Shown: positions 4,532 to 25,023 of the stretch, in pieces
How the letters are laid out: every line of letters starts with the position of its first letter
Numbering within the stretch: the first letter of the stretch is position 1
Source: a virus
Taxonomy: Duplodnaviria; Heunggongvirae; Uroviricota; Caudoviricetes
Virus record (IMG/VR): IMGVR_UViG_2802429231_000009
Strand: one strand, 5' to 3'
DNA: 35,292 bases
Program-made: the position numbers and the translations under genes
Notes under the pieces: model-generated
What the model was told of the DNA's origin: nothing
The model's database searches: none
What the model saw: only the letters and a program-made list of their open reading frames with translations

Positions 4532-5385
4532 GCACCATCCTGAAATGGGCGGGTAATAAAACCACCATTATGTCCGAACTGAAAAAATACCTTCCTGCTG
4601 GCACGCGACTGGTTGAACCTTTCGCGGGTTCTTGTGCTGTGATGATGGAGACGGATTACCCCAGCTATCTGGTTGCGGATATTAATCCTGATTTAATCAA
4701 CCTCTATAAAAAGGTTGCTGCTGATTGTGAGGCGTTTATATCTCGTGCCAGAGCTTTATTTGAGGAAGCAAACAGAGAGGTGGCTTATTACAACATAAGG
4801 CAGGAGTTTAATTACTCCACTGAAATTACTGATTTCATGAAAGCGGTATATTTTCTGTATCTCAATCGTCATGGTTACCGTGGGCTATGTCGCTATAACA
4901 AGAGCGGGTATTTCAACATTCCCTACGGTAATTATAAAAATCCGTATTTCCCTGAAAAAGAAATTCGCGCATTTGCAGAGAAAGCCCAGCGGGCAACGTT
5001 TATCTGCGCCAGCTTTGATGAAACGCTGGCGATGTTGAAGGCGGGGGATGTGGTGTATTGCGATCCGCCTTATGACGGTACGTTTTCCGGCTATCACACT
5101 GATGGCTTCACTGAAGATGACCAGTATCACCTGGCATCCGTTCTTGAACATCGATCATCTGAAGGTCATCCGGTCATTGTTTCTAACAGTGACACATCCC
5201 TGATCCGTTCGCTGTATCGCAATTTTACTCACCACTACATCAAGGCAAAACGCAGCATCGGCGTGGCAGCTGGTGAGAGTAAATCTGCAACAGAAATCAT
5301 CGCTGTTTCCGGGCCGCGCTGCTGGGTAGGATTTGATCCTTCGCGTGGCGTGGATTGTTCCGTCGTGTACGGAGTGCGTGCATGA
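4528..5385 (+). CDS. dam: DNA adenine methyltransferase (Dam-like, N6-adenine)
   Basis: N-terminus [18 protein letters not shown] segment and DPPY catalytic motif (VYCDPPYDG). Start ATG 4528 overlaps upstream stop. Confidence 0.85.
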
Positions 5386-7796
5386 GCCATGCTGATATGA
5401 ACAACTGCAGCGGCTTTAACGAGGTCGCCGCAGCATTCTCATGGAACAGCCCGAAAAAGGCCATTAACCCTTATCTGGACCCGGCGGAAGTTGCGCCGGT
5501 TTCTGCGCTTTCAAACCTGATCACTCTGTACGCTGCCGATAACGAGCAGGAACAACTGCGCCGCGAGGCACTGAGTGATCAGGTCTGGGAGCGTTATTTC
5601 TTTAATGAATCCCGTGATCCTGTCCAACGCGAAATGGAGCAGGATAAGCTAATTAGCCGGGCAAAGCTGGCGCATGAGCAGCAGCGTTTTAATCCAGACA
5701 TGGCCATTCTGGCGGACGTCAACGCCCAGCCTTCCCATATCAGCAAGCCGCTGATGCAACGTATTAAATACTTCAGCAGCCTGGGCAGGCCAAAGGCTTA
5801 TTCCCGCTATTTGCGTGAGACGATTAAGCCATGCTTGGAACGACTGGAGCATGTACGCGACAGTCAGCTATCCACTTCTTTTCGCTTTATGGCAAGCCAT
5901 GAAGGGCTGGACGGCCTGCTGATCCTGCCTGAAATGAGTCAGGATCAGGTGAAACGCCTGTCCACCTTGGTAGCTGCGCATATGAGCATGTGCCTTGATA
6001 CAGCTTGTGGCGATTTGTATGCCACCGATGATGTTACGCCAGAAGAAATCCGCAAGACATGGGAAAAGGTGGCAGCGGAAACCCTGCGTCTGGATGTTAT
6101 CCCGCCTGCGTTTGAGCAACTCTGTCGGAAAAGAAACCGCCGTAAACCCGTGCCTTATGAACTCATTCCGGGTTCGCTGGCGCGTATGTTATGCGCCGAC
6201 TGGTGGTATCGGAAATTATGGAAGATGCGTTGCGAATGGCGGGAAGAGCAGTTGCGTGCTGTTTGCCTGGTCAGCAAAAAAGCATCTCCCTATGTCAGCT
6301 ATGAAGCCGTGATGCATAAACGTGAGCAGCGCCGTAAGTCGCTGGAGTTTTTCCGTTCTCATGAACTGGTGAACGAAGACGGCGACACGCTGGATATGGA
6401 AGACGTGGTAAACGCCAGCAGCAGCAACCCTGCGCATCGCCGCAATGAGATGATGGCCTGTGTTAAAGGTCTGGAGCTTATCGCGGAAATGCGTGGTGAC
6501 TGCGCCGTTTTCTACACCATCACCTGTCCGTCACGTTTCCATTCCACGCTAAATAACGGCAGGCCCAACCCGACCTGGACAAATGCGACGGTAAGACAAA
6601 GCAGTGATTATCTGGTCGGTATGTTTGCTGCATTTCGTAAGGCTATGCACAAAGCCGGGTTGCGCTGGTATGGCGTGCGGGTGGCTGAGCCGCATCATGA
6701 CGGCACAGTTCACTGGCACCTGTTGTGTTTCATGCGCAAAAAAGACCGCCGCGCCATTACTGCATTGTTGCGTAAGTTTGCCATCCGTGAAGACCGCGAG
6801 GAGCTGGGCAATAACACGGGGCCGCGCTTTAAGTCTGAGCTGATAAACCCGCGCAAAGGAACGCCGACAAGCTACATTGCGAAATATATCAGTAAGAATA
6901 TTGACGGGCGTGGTCTGGCTGGCGAGATCAGTAAGGAAACGGGTAAATCCCTGCGTGATAACGCTGAATACGTTAATGCCTGGGCGTCTCTGCATCGTGT
7001 TCAGCAATTCCGCTTCTTTGGCATTCCGGGGCGTCAGGCTTACCGTGAACTGCGATTGCTGGCTGGTCAGGCGGCAAGGCAACAGGGTGACAAAAAAGCA
7101 GGTGCGCCGGTACTGGATAACCCGCGCCTTGATGCCATCCTGGCTGCTGCTGATGCTGGTTGTTTTGCCACCTACATCATGAAGCAGGGCGGCGTACTGG
7201 TTCCCCGCAAATATCACCTCATCAGAACCGCTTATGAAATCAACGAAGAGCCAACCGCCTATGGCGATCACGGTATTCGTATTTATGGCATCTGGTCACC
7301 CATTGCAGAGGGCAAGATCTGCACTCATGCAGTGAAGTGGAAAATGGTTCGTAAGGCCGTTGACGTTCAGGAGGCGGCAGCCGACCAGGGCGCTTGCGCC
7401 CCTTGGACTCGTGGCAATAACTGTCCCCTTGCGGAAAATTTGAACCAACAGGAGAAAGATAAATCAGCTGATGGGGACACCAGAACGGACATTACCCGCA
7501 TGGATGACAAGGAGTTGCACGATTACCTGCACAGTATGAGCAAAAAAGAGCGCCGGGAACTGGCAGCAAGGTTACGCCTGGTGAAGCCGAAACGGCGTAG
7601 AGACTACAAACAGCGAATTACAGACCATCAACGACAGCAGCTCGTCTATGAACTGAAGTCCAGAGGATTTGATGGCAGCGAGAAAGAGGTCGATTTACTC
7701 CTTCGCGGTGGCAGTATTCCGTCAGGAGCAGGCCTGCGTATCTTCTATCGGAACCAGCGTTTGCAGGAAGATGATAAGTGGCGGAATCTGTATTAA
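5382..7796 (+). CDS. A: Rolling-circle replication initiator (P2 gpA / 186 RepA, HUH endonuclease)
   Basis: HUH motif in [10 protein letters not shown] and tyrosine motif [12 protein letters not shown]. About 804 aa. ATG at 5382 overlaps dam stop (ATGA), preferred over the upstream start at 5355. Confidence 0.9.
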
Positions 7797-7890: not shown

Positions 7891-7906
7891 CTGTAAATAT
7901 AAACAG
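7891..7906. promoter_or_regulatory. LexA (SOS) box CTGT-N8-ACAG
   Basis: TACTGTAAATATAAACAGTG matches the LexA operator consensus; 43 bp upstream of the 7949 ORF. Confidence 0.6.
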
Positions 7907-7948: not shown

Positions 7949-8137
7949 ATGCAGGACTATTTTTTGGAGTCTTTGAAGCTCCAGCGCATTGATTTTTTTC
8001 TTAAGCTTGTAGCGGCTAGTGAGTGTAGTGATGAAGAGAAGGGGCTGGCCCTGCAGTGGGTTTCTGAACTGACAGATGAACTCATGGCAAAAATCAGAAC
8101 CCACGAATACAACCGCTCAATGGATGTCATCAGCTGA
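7949..8137 (+). CDS. Small SOS-regulated protein, possible Tum-like antirepressor component
   Basis: 62-aa ORF immediately downstream of the LexA box and upstream of the DinI-like gene. Confidence 0.45.
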   Translation: MQDYFLESLKLQRIDFFLKLVAASECSDEEKGLALQWVSELTDELMAKIRTHEYNRSMDVIS

Positions 8138-8147
8138 GGTGACTTTT

Positions 8148-8381
8148 ATGCGCATTGAAATAATGATCGATAAAGAGCAGAAGATTAGCCAGTCTACACT
8201 GGACGCCCTTGAATCCGAGCTTTACCGCAATCTGCGCCCCCTGTATCCCAAAACGGTAATTCGTATCCGCAAAGGTAGCTCTAACGGTGTGGAACTGACC
8301 GGACTGCAACTGGACGAAGAAAGAAAACAAGTGATGAAAATTATGCAGAAGGTGTGGGAAGACGACAGCTGGCTGCATTAA
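8148..8381 (+). CDS. DinI-family protein
   Basis: MRIEIMIDKEQKISQSTLDALESELYRNL...KVWEDDSWL resembles E. coli DinI (MRIEV...ETWESADDWF). GAGGTGA RBS before the ATG at 8148. Confidence 0.78.
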   Translation: MRIEIMIDKEQKISQSTLDALESELYRNLRPLYPKTVIRIRKGSSNGVELTGLQLDEERKQVMKIMQKVWEDDSWLH

Positions 8382-8514
8382 GAAACGTTGCTGGCGTCTG
8401 AACTTGTTTCTGGCGTCAGCAAGGTTGAACAACGAGCCCTTGCGAGGCGTTAGCTCTGTAGTGCATGTCTATGCCGCATGAGATCGCATGATCGTTTGAG
8501 GATCGTTTTTGCTA

Positions 8515-8541
8515 AGGCCCGCCAGAACTGGCGGGCTTTTG
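8515..8541 (+). terminator. Rho-independent terminator-like hairpin
   Basis: GCCCGCC-AGAACT-GGCGGGC stem-loop followed by TTTT, downstream of the DinI-like gene. Confidence 0.5.
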
Positions 8542-8586
8542 CGTAGATCATGCAGGTGCATGAAAACCACTACATAAAGCGGGCAG

Positions 8587-8605
8587 GCGTGGCGGGGATA
8601 CGAGC
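8587..8605. other. Putative cos (cohesive end) site
   Basis: GGCGTGGCGGGGATACGAG resembles the 19-nt P2/186 cohesive-end sequence as I recall it, at the expected position before the portal side. Confidence 0.4.
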
Positions 8606-8742
8606 GCGCGTTGTGGCTTGCAGCGGTGATTCTTTACATTGTGTTATCTTGAATTTATTGTAGCATTTTCGTAACAAACTAAGGTTCTTCGATTGCATAG
8701 ATAGGAAAAAGTGTTTGTTTGTTAGTCACTGCTTGATTACAC

Positions 8743-8765
8743 TCGTCTACTCTTGAAGTAGACGA
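8743..8765. promoter_or_regulatory. Perfect inverted repeat, candidate operator upstream of the cargo operon
   Basis: TCGTCTAC-TCTTGAA-GTAGACGA, about 55 bp upstream of the 8821 start. Confidence 0.3.
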
Positions 8766-8820
8766 TAGGTATTCGCTAGCACTTTAGGGTAATCAAACAA
8801 CCTGTAAAGAGAGGATTATT

Positions 8821-9393
8821 GTGCAGGTAGTTCATATAGGGTTTCATAACTGCCTTAATCGTGGCAGTTATGAGACGATACGGCAAAGCGTACCCTTTTT
8901 AAGCCGTTCAGGCCCTAAACAATGGTTAACTCAAGGTTACTATTTTTGGACTGATGACCCATACTGGGCTCATCAGTGGAACGAAGGTCATGATACGGTC
9001 ATTAGTGAATTTTCTATCACCTTTGATTCAAAGGATGAGTTGCTTGATTTGGTTGGAAATGCTCGAGATATCAGGCAATTTGAAGCTATGCGTCAGAAAG
9101 TTGCCAGTACTTTGACTCGAATGAGCGCCTTGCATATCACAGTCAATCAGGTCATTAGCTTTTTTAGAGAGCTCGAGCAATCTGATGATTTTAAAGGCGT
9201 ATTTCCATATGCTGCTGTTAAGGCACAAGATAGTACGAAAGTGTCTAATCTTATAAGACTTAACTTTGTAGATGAGCGCCCAGAACAGATGGTTTCATTT
9301 ACCCGTCAGCAAATGTGTGTTTATGAACATGCTCGAGGTAAGATAGAGTTTAGAAGATTTATCTTTCCAGAGCATTTCTGTGAGAAGGATTAA
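8821..9393 (+). CDS. Cargo gene 1: uncharacterised 190-aa protein, candidate toxin/effector
   Basis: GTG start with AAGAGAGGA RBS, in an AT-rich island. No family recognised; contains an R-x4-H (RMSALH) motif of uncertain meaning. Confidence 0.55.
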   Translation: MQVVHIGFHNCLNRGSYETIRQSVPFLSRSGPKQWLTQGYYFWTDDPYWAHQWNEGHDTVISEFSITFDSKDELLDLVGNARDIRQFEAMRQKVASTLTRMSALHITVNQVISFFRELEQSDDFKGVFPYAAVKAQDSTKVSNLIRLNFVDERPEQMVSFTRQQMCVYEHARGKIEFRRFIFPEHFCEKD

Positions 9394-9402
9394 GGAGGAA
9401 AA

Positions 9403-9636
9403 ATGCTTTCCTTTGAACAAAGAATGGCCTTACTTAACAAGGCATTACAGCAGTATACTCCTGAGTCGCTTTATGAAAAATTAAGCTCGTACCCGGCTTA
9501 TGGACCAACAATCGTAAGCTACGAGCTTCCAAGCTCCGAAGGGTTCATTACATTGAGACCACGTCTGATCAATCATGCTGCTGAACGTTCAGTGGATTTC
9601 TTTTCAGATGATACTGAATTGGATTTAGCGGCCTGA
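9403..9636 (+). CDS. Cargo gene 2: uncharacterised 77-aa protein, candidate antitoxin
   Basis: Strong AAGGAGGA RBS; 9-nt gap from gene 1 and 2-nt gap to gene 3; acidic C-terminus. Confidence 0.5.
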   Translation: MLSFEQRMALLNKALQQYTPESLYEKLSSYPAYGPTIVSYELPSSEGFITLRPRLINHAAERSVDFFSDDTELDLAA

Positions 9637-9638
9637 CG

Positions 9639-10028
9639 ATGAAACTAAGATTACGGGATAATACTGTTACTCGACTGTTGTTTGTCGATGCTGAAGGGCG
9701 CAAAATCGAATCTGGTTTTGCGCTTCGATTTAAGCCCATTTTTGATGAAAATCCGCGCGAATTTTCAGTATTGTTTGATTTTTATTACATTACTGAGAAT
9801 GATCGGGCATTACGAGTCGAGTTTCAAAGTGTTTTTGAAACAGATAAAGACATTGACGATTCTTTTAAAGAATCGAAGTTTCCAGTTGTTAATGCTCCTG
9901 CGATATCGTTCCCGTTTTTACGTTCGTTTGTTGCCAATTTTTTGATGACAAGTGGGTATACACCGATCCTGCTTCCTAGCTTTAACTTTACAACTTTTGA
10001 ACAGGATATCGGGAAGTTTCCTAACTGA
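9639..10028 (+). CDS. Cargo gene 3: SecB-like chaperone family protein (putative)
   Basis: C-terminal NAPAISFPFLRSFVANFLMTSGYTPILLPSFNF parallels E. coli SecB [32 protein letters not shown] (from memory). 129 aa, translationally coupled to gene 2. Confidence 0.55.
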   Translation: MKLRLRDNTVTRLLFVDAEGRKIESGFALRFKPIFDENPREFSVLFDFYYITENDRALRVEFQSVFETDKDIDDSFKESKFPVVNAPAISFPFLRSFVANFLMTSGYTPILLPSFNFTTFEQDIGKFPN

Positions 10029-10030
10029 GA

Positions 10031-10057
10031 AAAGGGCTATGTTTAGCCCTTTTTTAT
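10031..10057. terminator. Terminator-like hairpin between convergent cargo operon and portal gene
   Basis: AAAGGGCTA-TGTT-TAGCCCTTTTTT with A-run on one side and T-run on the other. Confidence 0.5.
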
Positions 10058-10066
10058 TAAGTTGAT

Positions 10067-11110
10067 TCAATTTTTATCTAAGCTCATGGTGTAAGGCTCG
10101 AAGCGGATCACTTCTTCACCAAGCCAGTCGTTAAGCTCCTGTAGCCTTTTCTGTAGTGGGATAAGTTCGTTGCGAACAAAAACTTTGCTGGCTTTCTCTA
10201 CATCCCCAAAACCCCCAACATTATTCGGCATAATCCCCATCATCTGTGGCGGAACACGATGCGCGGCCATCATGTCATCACGACTCACGTTCTTGATGTT
10301 CAGAAATTCATCTTTCGCTGCGACTTCTGACAACGGGATGATCTGAAGCCCGTCCTTTTTGCCGTTAGGCGAGTACATAAACAGGTTGCGGAAGTTACCC
10401 GGTCCTTTGGCGCTTTTCATCGCGTGGCGGAGGTTGTTCACGTCCTCCTGGTTCTGCGCGGCATCGGTCATGTACATGATGAAGCCAGCATGACTGCCGT
10501 TTATGTAATACTTTCGACGGAACAGCGTGGCGGACTCATTGAGCAGGGCGGACGGAATAGCAGAAAGATAGCCGGGCAGGCCATAGATCTCCTGATTTAT
10601 GTCCGGTTCCATCAGATGGAAAATGCTGCCTTTCGTGAACTGATACGGCTGCGTGGTCATGCCGTATTGCACAAACCAGTAGGTATCCAGGTCTAACCCG
10701 CGTCGGGTGTATTTTGCCAGCGCAGGCTCAAGGGCGATAACTTCACTGAAGCGGTTAGTGCGTTTCTCCAGGTAGGCGTTACCAAATACCAGATAGTCCT
10801 GCACAAAACGCGAAAAAGCCTGCTGGCTGAGCAGCGGGTGAGGGATGTAGGTGCTGGTCAGAATGTTGCACTTCACCGCAATTGGTGAACTGTGATGCAC
10901 GGCAGCGCGGAAGGTGCGCGCCAGTCCGTCAAAGCTGACAGGAGGCTCATACCAGCGATCTGTCTGTACGCATTCCACATAGTCCAGCAGTTCGCGGCGG
11001 TCAAGTACAGGAACGGGATCACCGAAGCTGAATGCTTCGGCTGAAGTCTGGCTTTTATGCTTGAGCTGATTCGTCGCCGCAGCGCGGTTTTTCTTACTCT
11101 TTCCCATCAA
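10067..11110 (-). CDS. Q: Portal protein (P2 gpQ-like)
   Basis: 347 aa, P2-typical size and position, overlapping the terminase ATPase gene stop. Confidence 0.85.
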   Translation of the reverse strand: MMGKSKKNRAAATNQLKHKSQTSAEAFSFGDPVPVLDRRELLDYVECVQTDRWYEPPVSFDGLARTFRAAVHHSSPIAVKCNILTSTYIPHPLLSQQAFSRFVQDYLVFGNAYLEKRTNRFSEVIALEPALAKYTRRGLDLDTYWFVQYGMTTQPYQFTKGSIFHLMEPDINQEIYGLPGYLSAIPSALLNESATLFRRKYYINGSHAGFIMYMTDAAQNQEDVNNLRHAMKSAKGPGNFRNLFMYSPNGKKDGLQIIPLSEVAAKDEFLNIKNVSRDDMMAAHRVPPQMMGIMPNNVGGFGDVEKASKVFVRNELIPLQKRLQELNDWLGEEVIRFEPYTMSLDKN

Positions 11111-12873
11111 AAAATCTCCACAATATTGCTGGTATTGGCGGACTCGCCCTGCAGCGGTTCGTTAAACAGTGCGTGCATCGTTGCCCAGGCCAGATCGGCG
11201 TGGCTGGCTTCTTCGCTGCGGCTGGCTTCATAGGTCGGGCGGTTGCCACTGGCGGTGGTGGCGCGACGGATTGCCATAAATGACTGCGCTATGTCGGTGT
11301 GTCCGGCGTCAAACTCCAGACGACGGTGACTGATAATGTCGTAGGCTTTGAGTACCAGGGCGTTTTTAACGTTAGGGTTGTAGACAAACTCCCGGACGGC
11401 AGGAAAGAACGCTTTCACGTTCTCGTAAACCCCGTGACCGACACCTGTTGAGTCGATGCCGATATAGGTCACGTTGTACTGTTCGGTCAGTTTTTTGATG
11501 GCGTCAGCCTGGGCGCGGAAGTCCATCCCGCGCCACTGGTGACGCTCAAGAATGCGAAACTTACCGCCTGGCACGGCTGGCGGTGCCACCACCACGCATC
11601 CGGCGCTGTCGCCGTTCTGCGTACCTTTTGCCGGGTCATAACCGATCCACACCTCGCGCCAGCCAAACGGGCGCAGGGCCAGTGCATGAAAGTCGGTCCA
11701 GACTTCCCAACTGTCCACCATGCACGCCTGCAGTTCGCTGAGCGGGAACACGGACGCGAGATCGTCCACGAACTCGCACATCAGCAGGTTCTGGTATTCG
11801 TCCGGGCTGTACTCCATGCGTAGCTGGTCGAGGTCGAACAGGTTACAGCCGCCGCGCACCGCATCTTCCACGGTGACTATCTGGCGGTATTGCCCGTCTG
11901 CGCACAGCAGGCCGGGGGCCAGATTGCTGTGGGACAGGTCGATGTCCACCTTGTCGGCTTTGTTGCGTCCACGGTTGAACAGCGCACCGGACCAGAACGG
12001 ATAAGCACTGTGGGTCAGGCTGGATGGCGTGGAAAAATAGGTTTGTCGCCATTTTTTGTGAATAGCCATACCGGAAGCCACTTTACGCAGCTCCTGAAAT
12101 TTCGGTATCCAGAAATATTCATCCAGATACAGGTTGCCGTGATAACTCTGGGCAGTGCGGGCATTGGTGCCGAGGAAGTAAAGCGTGGCACCGTTAGGAA
12201 GCACCATCGGATCACCTTTCAGCTCCACCTCCACTTCTTTGGCGAAGTCGATGATGTACTGCTTAAAGACGTGGGCCTGTGCCTTGCTGGCGGAAAGGAA
12301 AATCTGGTTACGTCCGGTCAGCAGGGCGTCAATCAGGGCTTCACGGGCAAAATAGAAGGTTGCGCCGATCTGGCGTGACTTCAGCAGGTTGCGGATGCGG
12401 TTGGTTTTTCCGGCTTCCCACCAGTGGCGCTGGTAGTTGAACATGGAGGAATGGAAGATTTCTTCCAGCTTCTCAATCTGTTCATCGGTGAAAACATTCT
12501 TTTCCGGCTGACGGCGTGGGCCTTTGTTGCGGTTGGCGACGTTAGGGTTTAAGTCGGCTTCGTTGCCGCCATTGTTAAACTTGCCGATCCGCGCGTGGCG
12601 CTCCGACTGGCGCGCCAGCAGGTCAATCTCTTTGAAATCTTTCCCTTCTTTGTGCTCCTTCATAATGAGCTGGCAGTAGCGTGCGGCGGTGGTGAGCTGC
12701 ATCTGATCCAGCGGCCCATAGTCACCCCACTTGTCGCGTTTTTTCCAGCTGTGAACAGTTGCAACTTTCTCGCCCAGCATTTCAGCAATGCGGGCGACGC
12801 GGTATCCCTGAAAGTACAGCAGCATGGCCTGCCGACGGGGATCGAGATCTGCGGGTGTCAGTGTGGTGTTCAT
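11107..12873 (-). CDS. P: Terminase large (ATPase) subunit (P2 gpP-like)
   Basis: 588 aa, divergent from the O-N-M operon as in P2. Confidence 0.85.
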   Translation of the reverse strand: MNTTLTPADLDPRRQAMLLYFQGYRVARIAEMLGEKVATVHSWKKRDKWGDYGPLDQMQLTTAARYCQLIMKEHKEGKDFKEIDLLARQSERHARIGKFNNGGNEADLNPNVANRNKGPRRQPEKNVFTDEQIEKLEEIFHSSMFNYQRHWWEAGKTNRIRNLLKSRQIGATFYFAREALIDALLTGRNQIFLSASKAQAHVFKQYIIDFAKEVEVELKGDPMVLPNGATLYFLGTNARTAQSYHGNLYLDEYFWIPKFQELRKVASGMAIHKKWRQTYFSTPSSLTHSAYPFWSGALFNRGRNKADKVDIDLSHSNLAPGLLCADGQYRQIVTVEDAVRGGCNLFDLDQLRMEYSPDEYQNLLMCEFVDDLASVFPLSELQACMVDSWEVWTDFHALALRPFGWREVWIGYDPAKGTQNGDSAGCVVVAPPAVPGGKFRILERHQWRGMDFRAQADAIKKLTEQYNVTYIGIDSTGVGHGVYENVKAFFPAVREFVYNPNVKNALVLKAYDIISHRRLEFDAGHTDIAQSFMAIRRATTASGNRPTYEASRSEEASHADLAWATMHALFNEPLQGESANTSNIVEIF

Positions 12874-14927: not shown

Positions 14928-15578
14928 ATGAGCCTGAGTCCCGCACGGCAGCATCGCCTGCGCGTTCAGGCTGAACAGGCCGCCCGCGAGGGCGGCAGTG
15001 TTCGCCACGCATCGGGCTATGACCTGATGCTGCTGCAACTGGCGGAAGACCGCCGCCGTCTCAAGGGCGTTCAGTCCACGGTCAAAAAAGCGGAAATCAA
15101 GGTGGAGCTGCTGCCGAAGTACGCCGCCTGGGCAGAGGGTGTCCTGGCTGCCGGAGGCGCTCAACAGGATGACGTGCTGATGTACGTGATGCTGTGGCGC
15201 ATTGATGCCGGAGATTATGCCGGAGCGCTGGAGATCGGGCGTCATGCCCTGCGTCATGGCTGGGTGATGCCGCTGGGTAACCGCAACGTGCAGACCGTGC
15301 TGGCAGAGGAAATGGCAGACGCCGCGCAGAGCGCAATGCTTGCCGCCACCGGCTTTGATGCTGATCTGTTGCTGCAGACGCTGGAGCTGACAGACGGTCT
15401 GGATATGCCGGACCAGTCACGGGCGCGTCTGCATAAAGCGATTGGCGTTGTCCTGAGTGAAAGCAATCCGGCGTCCGCCCTTAATCATCTCAACCATGCG
15501 TTACAGCTCGATCCCCGCTGTGGCGTGAAAAAAGACAAACAGCAGCTGGAGCGCAGACTGCGCAATGACAGCCGCTGA
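14928..15578 (+). CDS. M: Terminase small/endonuclease subunit (P2 gpM-like)
   Basis: 216 aa; synteny. Confidence 0.75.
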   Translation: MSLSPARQHRLRVQAEQAAREGGSVRHASGYDLMLLQLAEDRRRLKGVQSTVKKAEIKVELLPKYAAWAEGVLAAGGAQQDDVLMYVMLWRIDAGDYAGALEIGRHALRHGWVMPLGNRNVQTVLAEEMADAAQSAMLAATGFDADLLLQTLELTDGLDMPDQSRARLHKAIGVVLSESNPASALNHLNHALQLDPRCGVKKDKQQLERRLRNDSR

Positions 15579-23447: not shown

Positions 23448-23640
23448 GTCATTCAATATCTGGAGCACGGGGTGTATCGACCAGTTCTAGTGCATCCAGA
23501 TAACTCACCCACGAATTATATTGTTCCAGTTCGCCACCTTTCAGGCGATAAATAGCTGCTTTATCAGACCATTGCTTACTGTTTATAAACTCGTTAGCCT
23601 AGTCTATTCGCAGTTGTTTCTCTGCTTCGGTAGCAACCAC
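23448..23640 (-). pseudogene. Inverted 3' fragment of an alternative tail fibre assembly gene
   Basis: Minus-strand translation gives ...VVATEAEKQLRID*ANEFINSKQWSDKAAIYRLKGGELEQYNSWVSYLDALELVDTPRAPDIE* with an internal stop and no start. Confidence 0.5.
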
Positions 23641-23690
23641 AATCTCATATAAATTAAACTAATAAGTTTTTATTAAAAGTAAGATAGATG

Positions 23691-23712
23691 CCACCATTTT
23701 ATATAAATGGTG
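23691..23712. terminator. Hairpin downstream of the 290-aa cargo gene
   Basis: CCACCATTT-TATATA-AATGGTGG perfect inverted repeat just 3' of the minus-strand gene. Confidence 0.3.
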
Positions 23713-23720
23713 GTTCGCAG

Positions 23721-24593
23721 TTAACTAGCATGTAATAAGTTGAACAGGTTTTTAGTTACTTCGTTTTTAGTACTAAAAAACATATCTTTAAGGTCCGGTA
23801 ATGCAAAGGCAGCATTTTGGTCATTCGGTACAACAATAGGAGGCTCATATCCGTTGTCATACATTTTCTTTAAAGCGGCTACTATTTTTGTCTGATTTTG
23901 ACTGAATTCTTTCATGTCAATAAAAATTTCTCCAGATAGGGTCCCATCATCTTCACGTAGTATCGCTGGTTTGACACGACATATCTGATCCATTTCTCCA
24001 GTAGAAAAACCGGCAATCGCTGCATTAAATAACAAAGATGAAGTAGCCCATTTTTCATATAGTTTTTTGATAGCCATGCTTCTGATTTTTTTATCGTTGA
24101 TATATCCAATGCCACTGGCCAAAACTTCGGTTAATGGATTTTCCCCGCGAGTTACTCCAGACCAATAGTTGTGCATCCAGGGCGCATTTTGCTCAAGCGG
24201 AGAGCCGAGATAATCAGTGATCCACTCTGAGTCCACCTCTGTAAAGTTCAAACCATGAAAATCAATTTCTGCAATAGTGTTTTTATAGTTTTGATTTAAA
24301 CCCAAACGGTCAATTGCTATTTCAGCCATTTCTTTTGTTTTGAATAGATATATTCCGGTTAGGCGGGAAACTTTATCTCTGAAATTGTCTGAGCGTACCT
24401 TTTCAAGAGCTAACTCATTTTGTAATTTTTCATTGTGATTATCTGATAAGTATTTTCTTACTAGATTGTAGAACCAAATAGATACTCCAAACTCACTTTT
24501 ATAACAGATTGATTCAATTCTTCCTATTGCAACCTCCCAGGCAACAATTGGATTGTTTAAATTTAAGTAAGCATATAGTTTTCTCTGTTCCAT
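23721..24593 (-). CDS. Uncharacterised 290-aa cargo protein at the P2 Z/fun-equivalent position
   Basis: AT-rich ORF with AAGGAAAA RBS; lies between tail fibre genes and sheath gene; no family recognised. Confidence 0.6.
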   Translation of the reverse strand: MEQRKLYAYLNLNNPIVAWEVAIGRIESICYKSEFGVSIWFYNLVRKYLSDNHNEKLQNELALEKVRSDNFRDKVSRLTGIYLFKTKEMAEIAIDRLGLNQNYKNTIAEIDFHGLNFTEVDSEWITDYLGSPLEQNAPWMHNYWSGVTRGENPLTEVLASGIGYINDKKIRSMAIKKLYEKWATSSLLFNAAIAGFSTGEMDQICRVKPAILREDDGTLSGEIFIDMKEFSQNQTKIVAALKKMYDNGYEPPIVVPNDQNAAFALPDLKDMFFSTKNEVTKNLFNLLHAS

Positions 24594-24753
24594 TTTTATT
24601 TTCCTTATAGATGCTATGAAGGTTATTATTACATAAATGTTCGATAAATGTTTTTAAGTTTTAACTTCGTTTCGGTGCCAATAAATATACATTACAAGTG
24701 AAATTTATCAAGGTAACAAAAGGAGAGCTAATGCTAATAGGCTATGTACTCCA

Positions 24754-25023
24754 ATGGGCCGTTTCTTTTTTCATGTCATGGGTGCCCTGGCTGAAATGGA
24801 ACGCGAACTGATAGTTGAACGTACCAGGGCGGGGCTTGCTGCAGCTCGCGCCAAAGGCAGAGTAGGTGGACGCCGTCCTAAGTTGACCATCGAACAGTGG
24901 GCACAGATTGGACGCTTACTCGAGGCCGGAGAATCAAGACAGCGTATTGCACTGATTTTTGATGTGGGTGTTTCCACAATTTATAGAAAATTTCCGGCAA
25001 ATAAGAGTAATGAATCTCCCTGA
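24754..25023 (+). pseudogene. Serine DNA invertase (Hin/Gin/Pin/Cin family), C-terminal fragment only
   Basis: FFHVMGALAEMERELIVERTRAGLAAARAKGRVGGRRPKLT...VSTIYRKFP matches the C-terminal HTH region of invertases; catalytic N-terminal domain absent. Confidence 0.6.

Follow-up and report, generated by a model that had tools for sequence, protein, structure and literature searches.

Positions 8586–8604 of the window, which is the whole stretch of DNA analysed here (35,292 nucleotides, IMG/VR record IMGVR_UViG_2802429231_000009), are very probably the cos cleavage site of a 186/Fels-2-type prophage (P2 family, Peduoviridae) that is apparently intact and SOS-inducible and resides next to ybjL in an Escherichia chromosome. 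Between this site and the portal gene Q a cargo of three genes is present at 8821–10028, which, judged by its profile matches, is the known toxin-antitoxin-chaperone defence system CmdTAC (PD-T4-9).

The equivalent of the 19-nt cohesive end is GGCGTGGCGGGGATACGAG (8586..8604, plus strand) and was assigned by homology to annotated cos sites. In its local context it reads ...AAAACCACTACATAAAGCGGGCA / GGCGTGGCGGGGATACGAG / CGCGCGTTGTGG... with the slashes marking its borders. Here, the cohesive ends of P2 (GGCGAGGCGGGGAAAGCAC, NC_001895, bases 1–19) and of 186 (GGCGTGGCGGGGAAAGCAT, NC_001317, bases 1–19) served as references. The identity amounts to 15/19 with 186 and to 14/19 with P2 as well as with P4, and the site is thus a G+C-rich cohesive end of the type GGCGNGGCGGGG-N7. 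Up to base 13 it is identical to 186, and all four mismatches fall within the last six bases, the 3' third being ATACGAG in the window versus AAAGCAT. Since the site has four mismatches, a search of the window with the 19-mer of 186 allowing up to three gave no match, and the match was therefore established via alignment of the flanks. The original prediction had placed a GC-rich 19-mer resembling the P2/186 cohesive end at 8587–8605. The resemblance stands, and the coordinates have to be shifted by one base to the left. That the 19-mer lies just before an AT-rich cargo is likewise borne out by a GC content of 0.39–0.44 over 8501–10000, compared to 0.53–0.63 in the late genes.

The flanks of the 19-mer match the experimentally defined cos sites of P2, 186 and P4 as well, in line with the prediction. 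From −40 to +26 relative to the cut, the window is identical to 186 at 51/66 positions, to P2 and to P4 at 47/66 each, and to Salmonella phage SEN8 at 61/66. The window and the right ends of P2, 186 and P4 have in common the string TGCA..TGCAT.AAAACC....C...AAG.GGGC. on the 5' side of the cut and GCGCG after the 19-mer. The right-arm half of this core (TGCAGGTGCATGAAAACC...AAAGCGGGCA; 8551..8585, plus strand) extends up to the top-strand cut and was delineated by a pattern match and by alignment to P2, 186, P4 and SEN8. Directly past the cohesive end, the alignment revealed CGCGCG (8605..8610, plus strand), which is kept in P2, 186, P4 and nearly all loci and represents the last conserved bases before the variable cassette, divergence starting at 8611. 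The window therefore possesses the core of about 55 bp surrounding the cut that is conserved in P2, P4 and 186. The segment from −40 to +26 corresponds to the 55-bp core that a passage of PMC5694545 cites, after Ziermann and Calendar (1990), as a feature of the family.

The same site is present in other phage records. In SEN8 (NC_047753, Felsduovirus), bases 1–19 are annotated as 'putative cos site' and are identical to the window at 19/19 positions, as is the following CGCGCG. This record opens exactly at the equivalent of the junction between 8585 and 8586 and ends at the equivalent of 8585, and the record of Erwinia phage EtG opens at the same point. Furthermore, a 59-bp 'putative cos site, homologous to the cos of P2' of Escherichia phage Cartapus (OV696611) contains the same 19-mer (19/19). 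In these three records the site is called 'putative' or assigned by homology, and none is marked as physically mapped. The record of Escherichia phage Midge (PV287706, 186-like) starts halfway through the 19-nt cohesive end (...GGCGTGGCG / GGGAAAGCAT...), and therefore the termini of cos-phage records are unreliable evidence for cut positions. The cargo between cos and the portal gene differs from that of the window in SEN8, which harbors a hypothetical protein and an HNH endonuclease, and in Cartapus, which harbors a DUF4145 protein.

In E. coli relatives, a RefSeq/PGAP pseudogene ('hypothetical protein, internal stop') spans cos, at about 8478–8663 in window equivalents. It seems to be an artefact, with automatic annotation misreading the non-coding packaging signal at cos as a pseudogene.

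The core is embedded in a conserved cos module of 153 bp (8458..8610, plus strand), which was delimited by blastn blocks and information content. In blastn comparisons with prophages of other species, the homology blocks begin at 8458–8461 and stop at 8610, leaving a conserved island from −128 to +25 from the cut with unrelated DNA on either side. Across 55 loci, alignment columns are highly informative from −38 up to +25, where they reach about 2 bits; by +27 the information content has fallen to about 0 and stays there. The homology breaks sharply 6–7 bp past the 19-mer. Within the module, three GCAT motifs start at 8463, 8476 and 8486 (8463..8489, plus strand), at the conserved offsets −123, −110 and −100 from the top-strand cut, and a fourth is found at 8558–8561 (−28). 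All four offsets are equal in the window, 186, P4 and SEN8, with P2 having −122 for the first. Among 55 related prophages, GCAT is present at these offsets in 48–55, the three motifs of 8463–8489 in 48–50. Where about one GCAT per 230 nt is expected, about 4.8 are observed, all on the right-arm side, and these spaced motifs are candidate recognition or binding elements of the terminase.

The module also contains the predicted rho-independent terminator hairpin of the tum operon (8514..8541, plus strand; −23.4 kcal/mol, z = −5.0, followed by a T run), at the place equivalent to the t95b terminator of 186. A terminator-like hairpin just past cos, at 8609–8625, was dropped as its stability resembled that of shuffled sequences (z = −0.3).

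The surrounding genes place the site in a syntenic position, with A (5355–7796), tum (8148–8381), cos, the cargo, Q (10067–11110) and P (11107–12873) following each other. On the whole, the prophage order is int, a 186-type CI repressor (Pfam Phage_CI_repr and Phage_CI_C), early genes, A, a LexA-like box, a small ORF, tum, cos and the cargo, and past the cargo portal Q, terminase P, scaffold, capsid, terminase M, lysis genes, tail genes, D and ogr. The right flank of the prophage is Escherichia ybjL-ybjM-grxA. From the positions of int, at the window start, and of ogr/ybjL, a phage genome of about 32.5 kb is estimated, similar in size to those of P2 (33.6 kb) and SEN8 (35.2 kb). The portal gene Q (10067..11110, minus strand) was identified by Pfam Phage_portal (9.6e-18), and gene P for the large terminase subunit (11107..12873, minus strand) by Terminase_6N (3e-65), Terminase_6C (1.7e-49) and Terminase_5 (3.3e-27). 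Gene M for the small (endonuclease) subunit (14928..15578, plus strand) matches Phage_term_smal (2.2e-40) and is annotated as terminase endonuclease subunit in the E. coli relative. Both cognate terminase genes, M and P, are located on the same element as cos.

On the right arm of the virion DNA, the gene nearest to cos is the DinI-like tum (8148..8381, plus strand; Pfam DinI, 1.3e-22). The ORF was listed as 8076–8381 with 8148 as its likely start, and E. coli relatives annotate a DinI-like gene of 234 nt. Upstream of tum and of an ORF for 62 amino acids (7949–8137), a LexA-box-like perfect palindrome CTGTAAATATAAACAG is present (7891..7906, plus strand), the only match to CTGT-N8-ACAG without mismatch in the window. 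In 186, tum is found in the same position and the LexA site at p95 is analogous to the palindrome, so that the arrangement mirrors the SOS-controlled p95-tum operon of 186. The LexA-like palindrome together with tum suggests that the prophage is SOS-inducible through an antirepressor. The likeness to 186 extends to its cos, where the shared core TCATGCA..TGCAT.AAAACC....CATAAAG.GGGCA is followed across the cut by GGCG and further on by GCGCG, a terminator hairpin lies upstream and the tum SOS operon is found on the right arm. 186 differs in having a tW terminator within its 176-bp gap between cos and the portal gene and an orf97 between tum and cos.

Another AT-rich island of this prophage is located at 23501–25023 (GC 0.36), between the tail-fibre and the tail-sheath regions. 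Its ORF for 290 amino acids (23721–24593, minus strand) has no Pfam or PADLOC match, and for the neighbouring ORF for 89 amino acids (24754–25023) the match is limited to the C-terminal end of the resolvase catalytic domain and to the resolvase HTH domain. Since P2-like phages have their second hotspot (Z/fun) at this place, the island may hold an uncharacterised cargo gene.

Measured from the 19-mer to the stop codon of the portal gene, the cos-to-Q interval comprises 1462 bp in the window versus 167 bp in P2 and 176 bp in 186, which agrees with the prediction that a three-gene operon is inserted where P2 has little spacer. Among related prophages, however, this arrangement is not unusual, but the common state of the lineage. 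Here, 80 loci encoding relatives of Q were taken from a collection with one genome per bacterial species, cos being located by motif, and 69 of them carry a recognisable cos with conserved flanks. The spacer exceeds 260 bp in 57/69 loci: 12 have up to 260 bp, 8 have 261–1000 bp, 43 have 1–3.5 kb and 6 have more than 3.5 kb, with a median of 1687 bp. A similar picture was obtained for IMG/VR contigs with the exact 35-nt junction, of which 50/56 with Q downstream exceed 260 bp (median 1689). Among 80 such contigs, 66 distinct 20-mers are found at +26..+45; the scan used a junction-spanning pattern, to which contigs ending at cos are invisible.

One of the loci is on JAEYLX010000057.1, a 4.5-kb contig labelled as a Bacillota MAG, whose portal gene is 96% identical to that of the window and which has the same enterobacterial cos. 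Probably, this contig is mis-binned or a contaminant.

The content of these intervals is mostly defence-related. When the largest ORFs between cos and Q were sampled from 20 loci of different species, 15/20 matched PADLOC defence families, among them IetS, type II methyltransferase, bSEFIR, SIR2-like, Old/Gabija-like ATPases, AbiLi, PDC-M01A, PDC-M03A, PD-T7-4 and PD-Lambda-2_B-like. The longest cargo ORF reads from cos toward Q, convergent with the portal gene, in 44/47 loci, and the same holds for the window. In 'empty' relatives, the spacer consists of a GC-rich stretch of about 100 bp and a terminator, all of which is replaced in the window, where the native terminator sequence of the empty site is absent. 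Only at 10071–10124, 5–58 bp into Q from its 3' end, does homology to relatives resume, and the final residues of the portal protein vary among these relatives. Therefore, the cassette exchange seems to include the C-terminal codons of Q.

Such a complete replacement of the native cos-Q spacer and its terminator could also mean that the site is a genuine cos by descent that is no longer used, either because the prophage is defective or because a cargo so near to the cut impairs packaging; it also has to be considered that attL lies outside the window. This reading is nevertheless very unlikely. The ORFs for head, terminase, tail, lysis and regulatory functions are all full length, including terminase and portal, and the cos module is 97–100% identical to copies in many other prophages and phage records. 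Furthermore, the breakpoint at +26 is present in 57/69 related prophages, and the isolated phages SEN8 and Cartapus carry cargo at this place, which indicates that replacement at +26 is compatible with viable phages.

The functional cos is predicted to be cut between 8585 and 8586 on the top strand and between 8604 and 8605 on the bottom strand, which would leave 5' overhangs of 19 nt. The position of the bottom-strand cut is deduced from homology, as the 19-mer agrees with 186 at only two of its last six positions. In principle, these differences would also fit a cos with an end structure unlike that of P2 and 186, with another overhang length or a shifted bottom-strand cut, and the variation of position 13 within the lineage (A, C, G or T) could be read in the same way. 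However, the flank C/T-GCGCG is found at the same distance from GGCG in P2, 186, P4 and 69/69 loci. This fixed distance argues for an unchanged cut geometry and makes a deviating end structure extremely improbable. The variant of the window, GGCGTGGCGGGGATACGAG, is also the commonest 19-mer among the related loci (32/69). Lambda cos (cosQ-cosN-cosB) is likewise a cohesive-end site at which a two-subunit terminase introduces staggered nicks. It yields 12-nt ends, is not known to share sequence similarity with the cos of the window and has its recognition elements arranged differently relative to the cut.

That the match is a GC-rich coincidence without any packaging role can be dismissed, short as the 19-mer originally noted is, since its 13-mer GGCGWGGCGGGGA is single-copy in the window and matched by 0/100 shuffles, the 60-nt pattern of positions common to P2, 186 and P4 (TGCANNTGCATNAAAACC...GGCGNGGCGGGGA...GCGCG) has one match at 8551–8610 with 0 mismatches and 0 expected (likewise 0/100 shuffles), and the site is syntenic and conserved in more than 120 viral contigs of IMG/VR.

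As first coding DNA after cos, three co-oriented ORFs match the PADLOC families PD-T4-9 A, B and C over their full length and in this order. These are cmdT (PD-T4-9_A; 8821..9393, plus strand; PDLC04069, 2.8e-96) for the putative ADP-ribosyltransferase toxin, with its function assigned from published work (PMC9519451, PMC11618068), cmdA (PD-T4-9_B; 9403..9636, plus strand; PDLC04070, 5.1e-39, residues 1–77 of 77) for the antitoxin, and cmdC (PD-T4-9_C; 9639..10028, plus strand; PDLC04071, 1.1e-60) for the putative SecB-like chaperone. Since cmdT starts 236 bp from the predicted left end of the virion DNA, the operon would indeed be the first after the packaging site, as had been proposed for the case that the 19-mer is cos. 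For CmdT and CmdA, Pfam gave nothing useful, so that the identification relies on PADLOC. The product of cmdC scores 25.2 bits against Pfam SecB, just under the cut-off of 26 bits (E 1.7e-05; residues 79–119 only), and database sources name it protein-export chaperone SecB.

PD-T4-9, which was renamed CmdTAC, has been found in E. coli ECOR22 and guards against T-even phages by abortive infection (PMC9519451). [quoted passage not shown] The accessions of the ECOR22 proteins are RCP66309-11. The exact CmdTAC protein sequences of the window are present on hundreds of Escherichia and Klebsiella contigs. On DNA level, the cargo (8606–10066) has no match among 50,697 phage records and is found in only 3/5,426 complete E. 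coli genomes, in which the order A - DinI - cos - cmdTAC - portal is identical. The same arrangement occurs in Lelliottia, with a CmdT homologue at the equivalent place.

The AT-rich leader of the cargo contains a promoter-like site, TTTACA-17-TATTGT (8633..8661, plus strand), a weak match (9/12) found by consensus scan only. At the other end, a hairpin is located between the convergent genes cmdC and Q (10028..10055), which folds on both strands with −16.3 kcal/mol (z −4.95) and −13.1 kcal/mol (z −5.18), has T runs on both sides and ends 11 bp before the stop codon of Q. It was missed by the terminator scan, spotted by eye and confirmed by folding. This putative bidirectional terminator would take the place of the native terminator of the tQ/tW type.

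The slot itself has a known precedent. In 186-related E. coli prophages, the retrons Ec67 and Ec86 reportedly replace the DNA between cos and the packaging gene, as is said of the work of Dodd and Egan of 1996 (Virology 219:115), according to whose title the replacement is said to end at a transcription terminator. In comparison to these prophages, the window has foreign defence-type DNA in the same slot, with CmdTAC as cargo and not a retron. As in a slot of this type, the foreign DNA starts directly past the cos core, homology to all relatives stopping at 8610 or 8611. Its other border in the window is not the native portal-operon terminator, which is missing; a bidirectional terminator comes with the cassette instead. 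The location of retron Ec67 between cos and a DNA packaging gene of a prophage is also stated in a passage of PMC7826664, citing Dodd and Egan (1996).

Furthermore, cosL-Q has been described as a hotspot (PMC5694545). For 18,150 E. coli loci, Rousset et al. (2022) described gpA-gpQ, close to cos, as a hotspot of defence systems, noting that the P4 hotspot adjoins the same cos core (PMC9122126). Four of the systems newly discovered by Vassallo et al. (2022) were located at gpA-gpQ, and PD-T4-9 originates from that E. coli screen (PMC9519451). The P2 gpA-gpQ defence hotspot next to cos is also described in PMC13586616. The window fits to this hotspot, having variable accessory genes between the replication endonuclease gpA and the portal gpQ. 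In P4, the accessory/defence region (gop-beta-cII) begins right past cosL and CGCGCGC, which is the same side and the same breakpoint as in the window, whereas the cargo of P2 (tin, old) is found on the opposite side of cos. Among the related loci, the A side of cos ranges from 431 to 4378 bp and the Q side from 104 to 6452 bp. Since the A side is variable as well, the published gpA-gpQ hotspot consists of two slots split by the cos module. Surveys of the hotspot treat A-to-Q as one interval, whereas in the window and its relatives cos divides it into two independently variable sub-slots.

Mechanistically, the terminase of gpM (small subunit) and gpP (large subunit) would recognize the module of about 150 bp at 8458–8610, whose conserved elements lie nearly all on the A/tum side, probably by binding to the GCAT elements. 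It would then nick at the two predicted positions and create the 19-nt 5' cohesive ends, so that the virion chromosome would start at 8586 with the cargo operon as the first coding DNA at its left end. The DNA on the Q side past +25 would be dispensable for packaging, which would allow cassettes to accumulate there. Cassettes could replace the cos-to-Q DNA because only about 6 bp past the 19-mer are constrained and the rest would have no essential function. The cassette of the window would extend from 8611 to about 10070 and comprise the AT-rich leader with the promoter-like site, cmdT-cmdA-cmdC and its own bidirectional terminator. If active as predicted, the terminator would insulate cmdTAC from the late P-Q transcript, and vice versa. 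According to published work, CmdTAC expressed from the prophage would abort infections by T-even phages when the incoming capsid protein titrates the chaperone.

A further possibility, which we regard as rather doubtful, is that the cos cut itself drives the exchange of cassettes. Here, linear left ends with a conserved stub of only 25 bp, made by the terminase or just injected, would recombine and thereby swap defence cassettes among P2-like phages and with P4-like satellites, whose stub and breakpoint are the same. This idea is based on the sharp lineage-wide breakpoint 6–7 bp past the cohesive end and on the orientation bias of the cargo (44/47). If it were true, the position at the extreme end would be mechanistically required and not merely tolerated.

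Published descriptions already exist for this family of cos sites, for the exact variant of the sequence, for the slot and for the system it carries, and the current understanding is unchanged by the finding. Slightly new, and of descriptive nature only, are the fixed breakpoint at +26, the 153-bp cos island splitting the hotspot, the spacing of the GCAT motifs and the orientation bias of the cargo. For this prophage, the finding provides a virion map, with the predicted left end at 8586 and cmdTAC as the first operon on the left arm. For the family, the Q-side slot invariably begins at +26 from the cut, which gives a precise anchor for mining defence cassettes, the interval to be mined being everything between ...GGCGTGGCGGGGNNNNNNN-CGCGCG and the stop codon of the portal gene.
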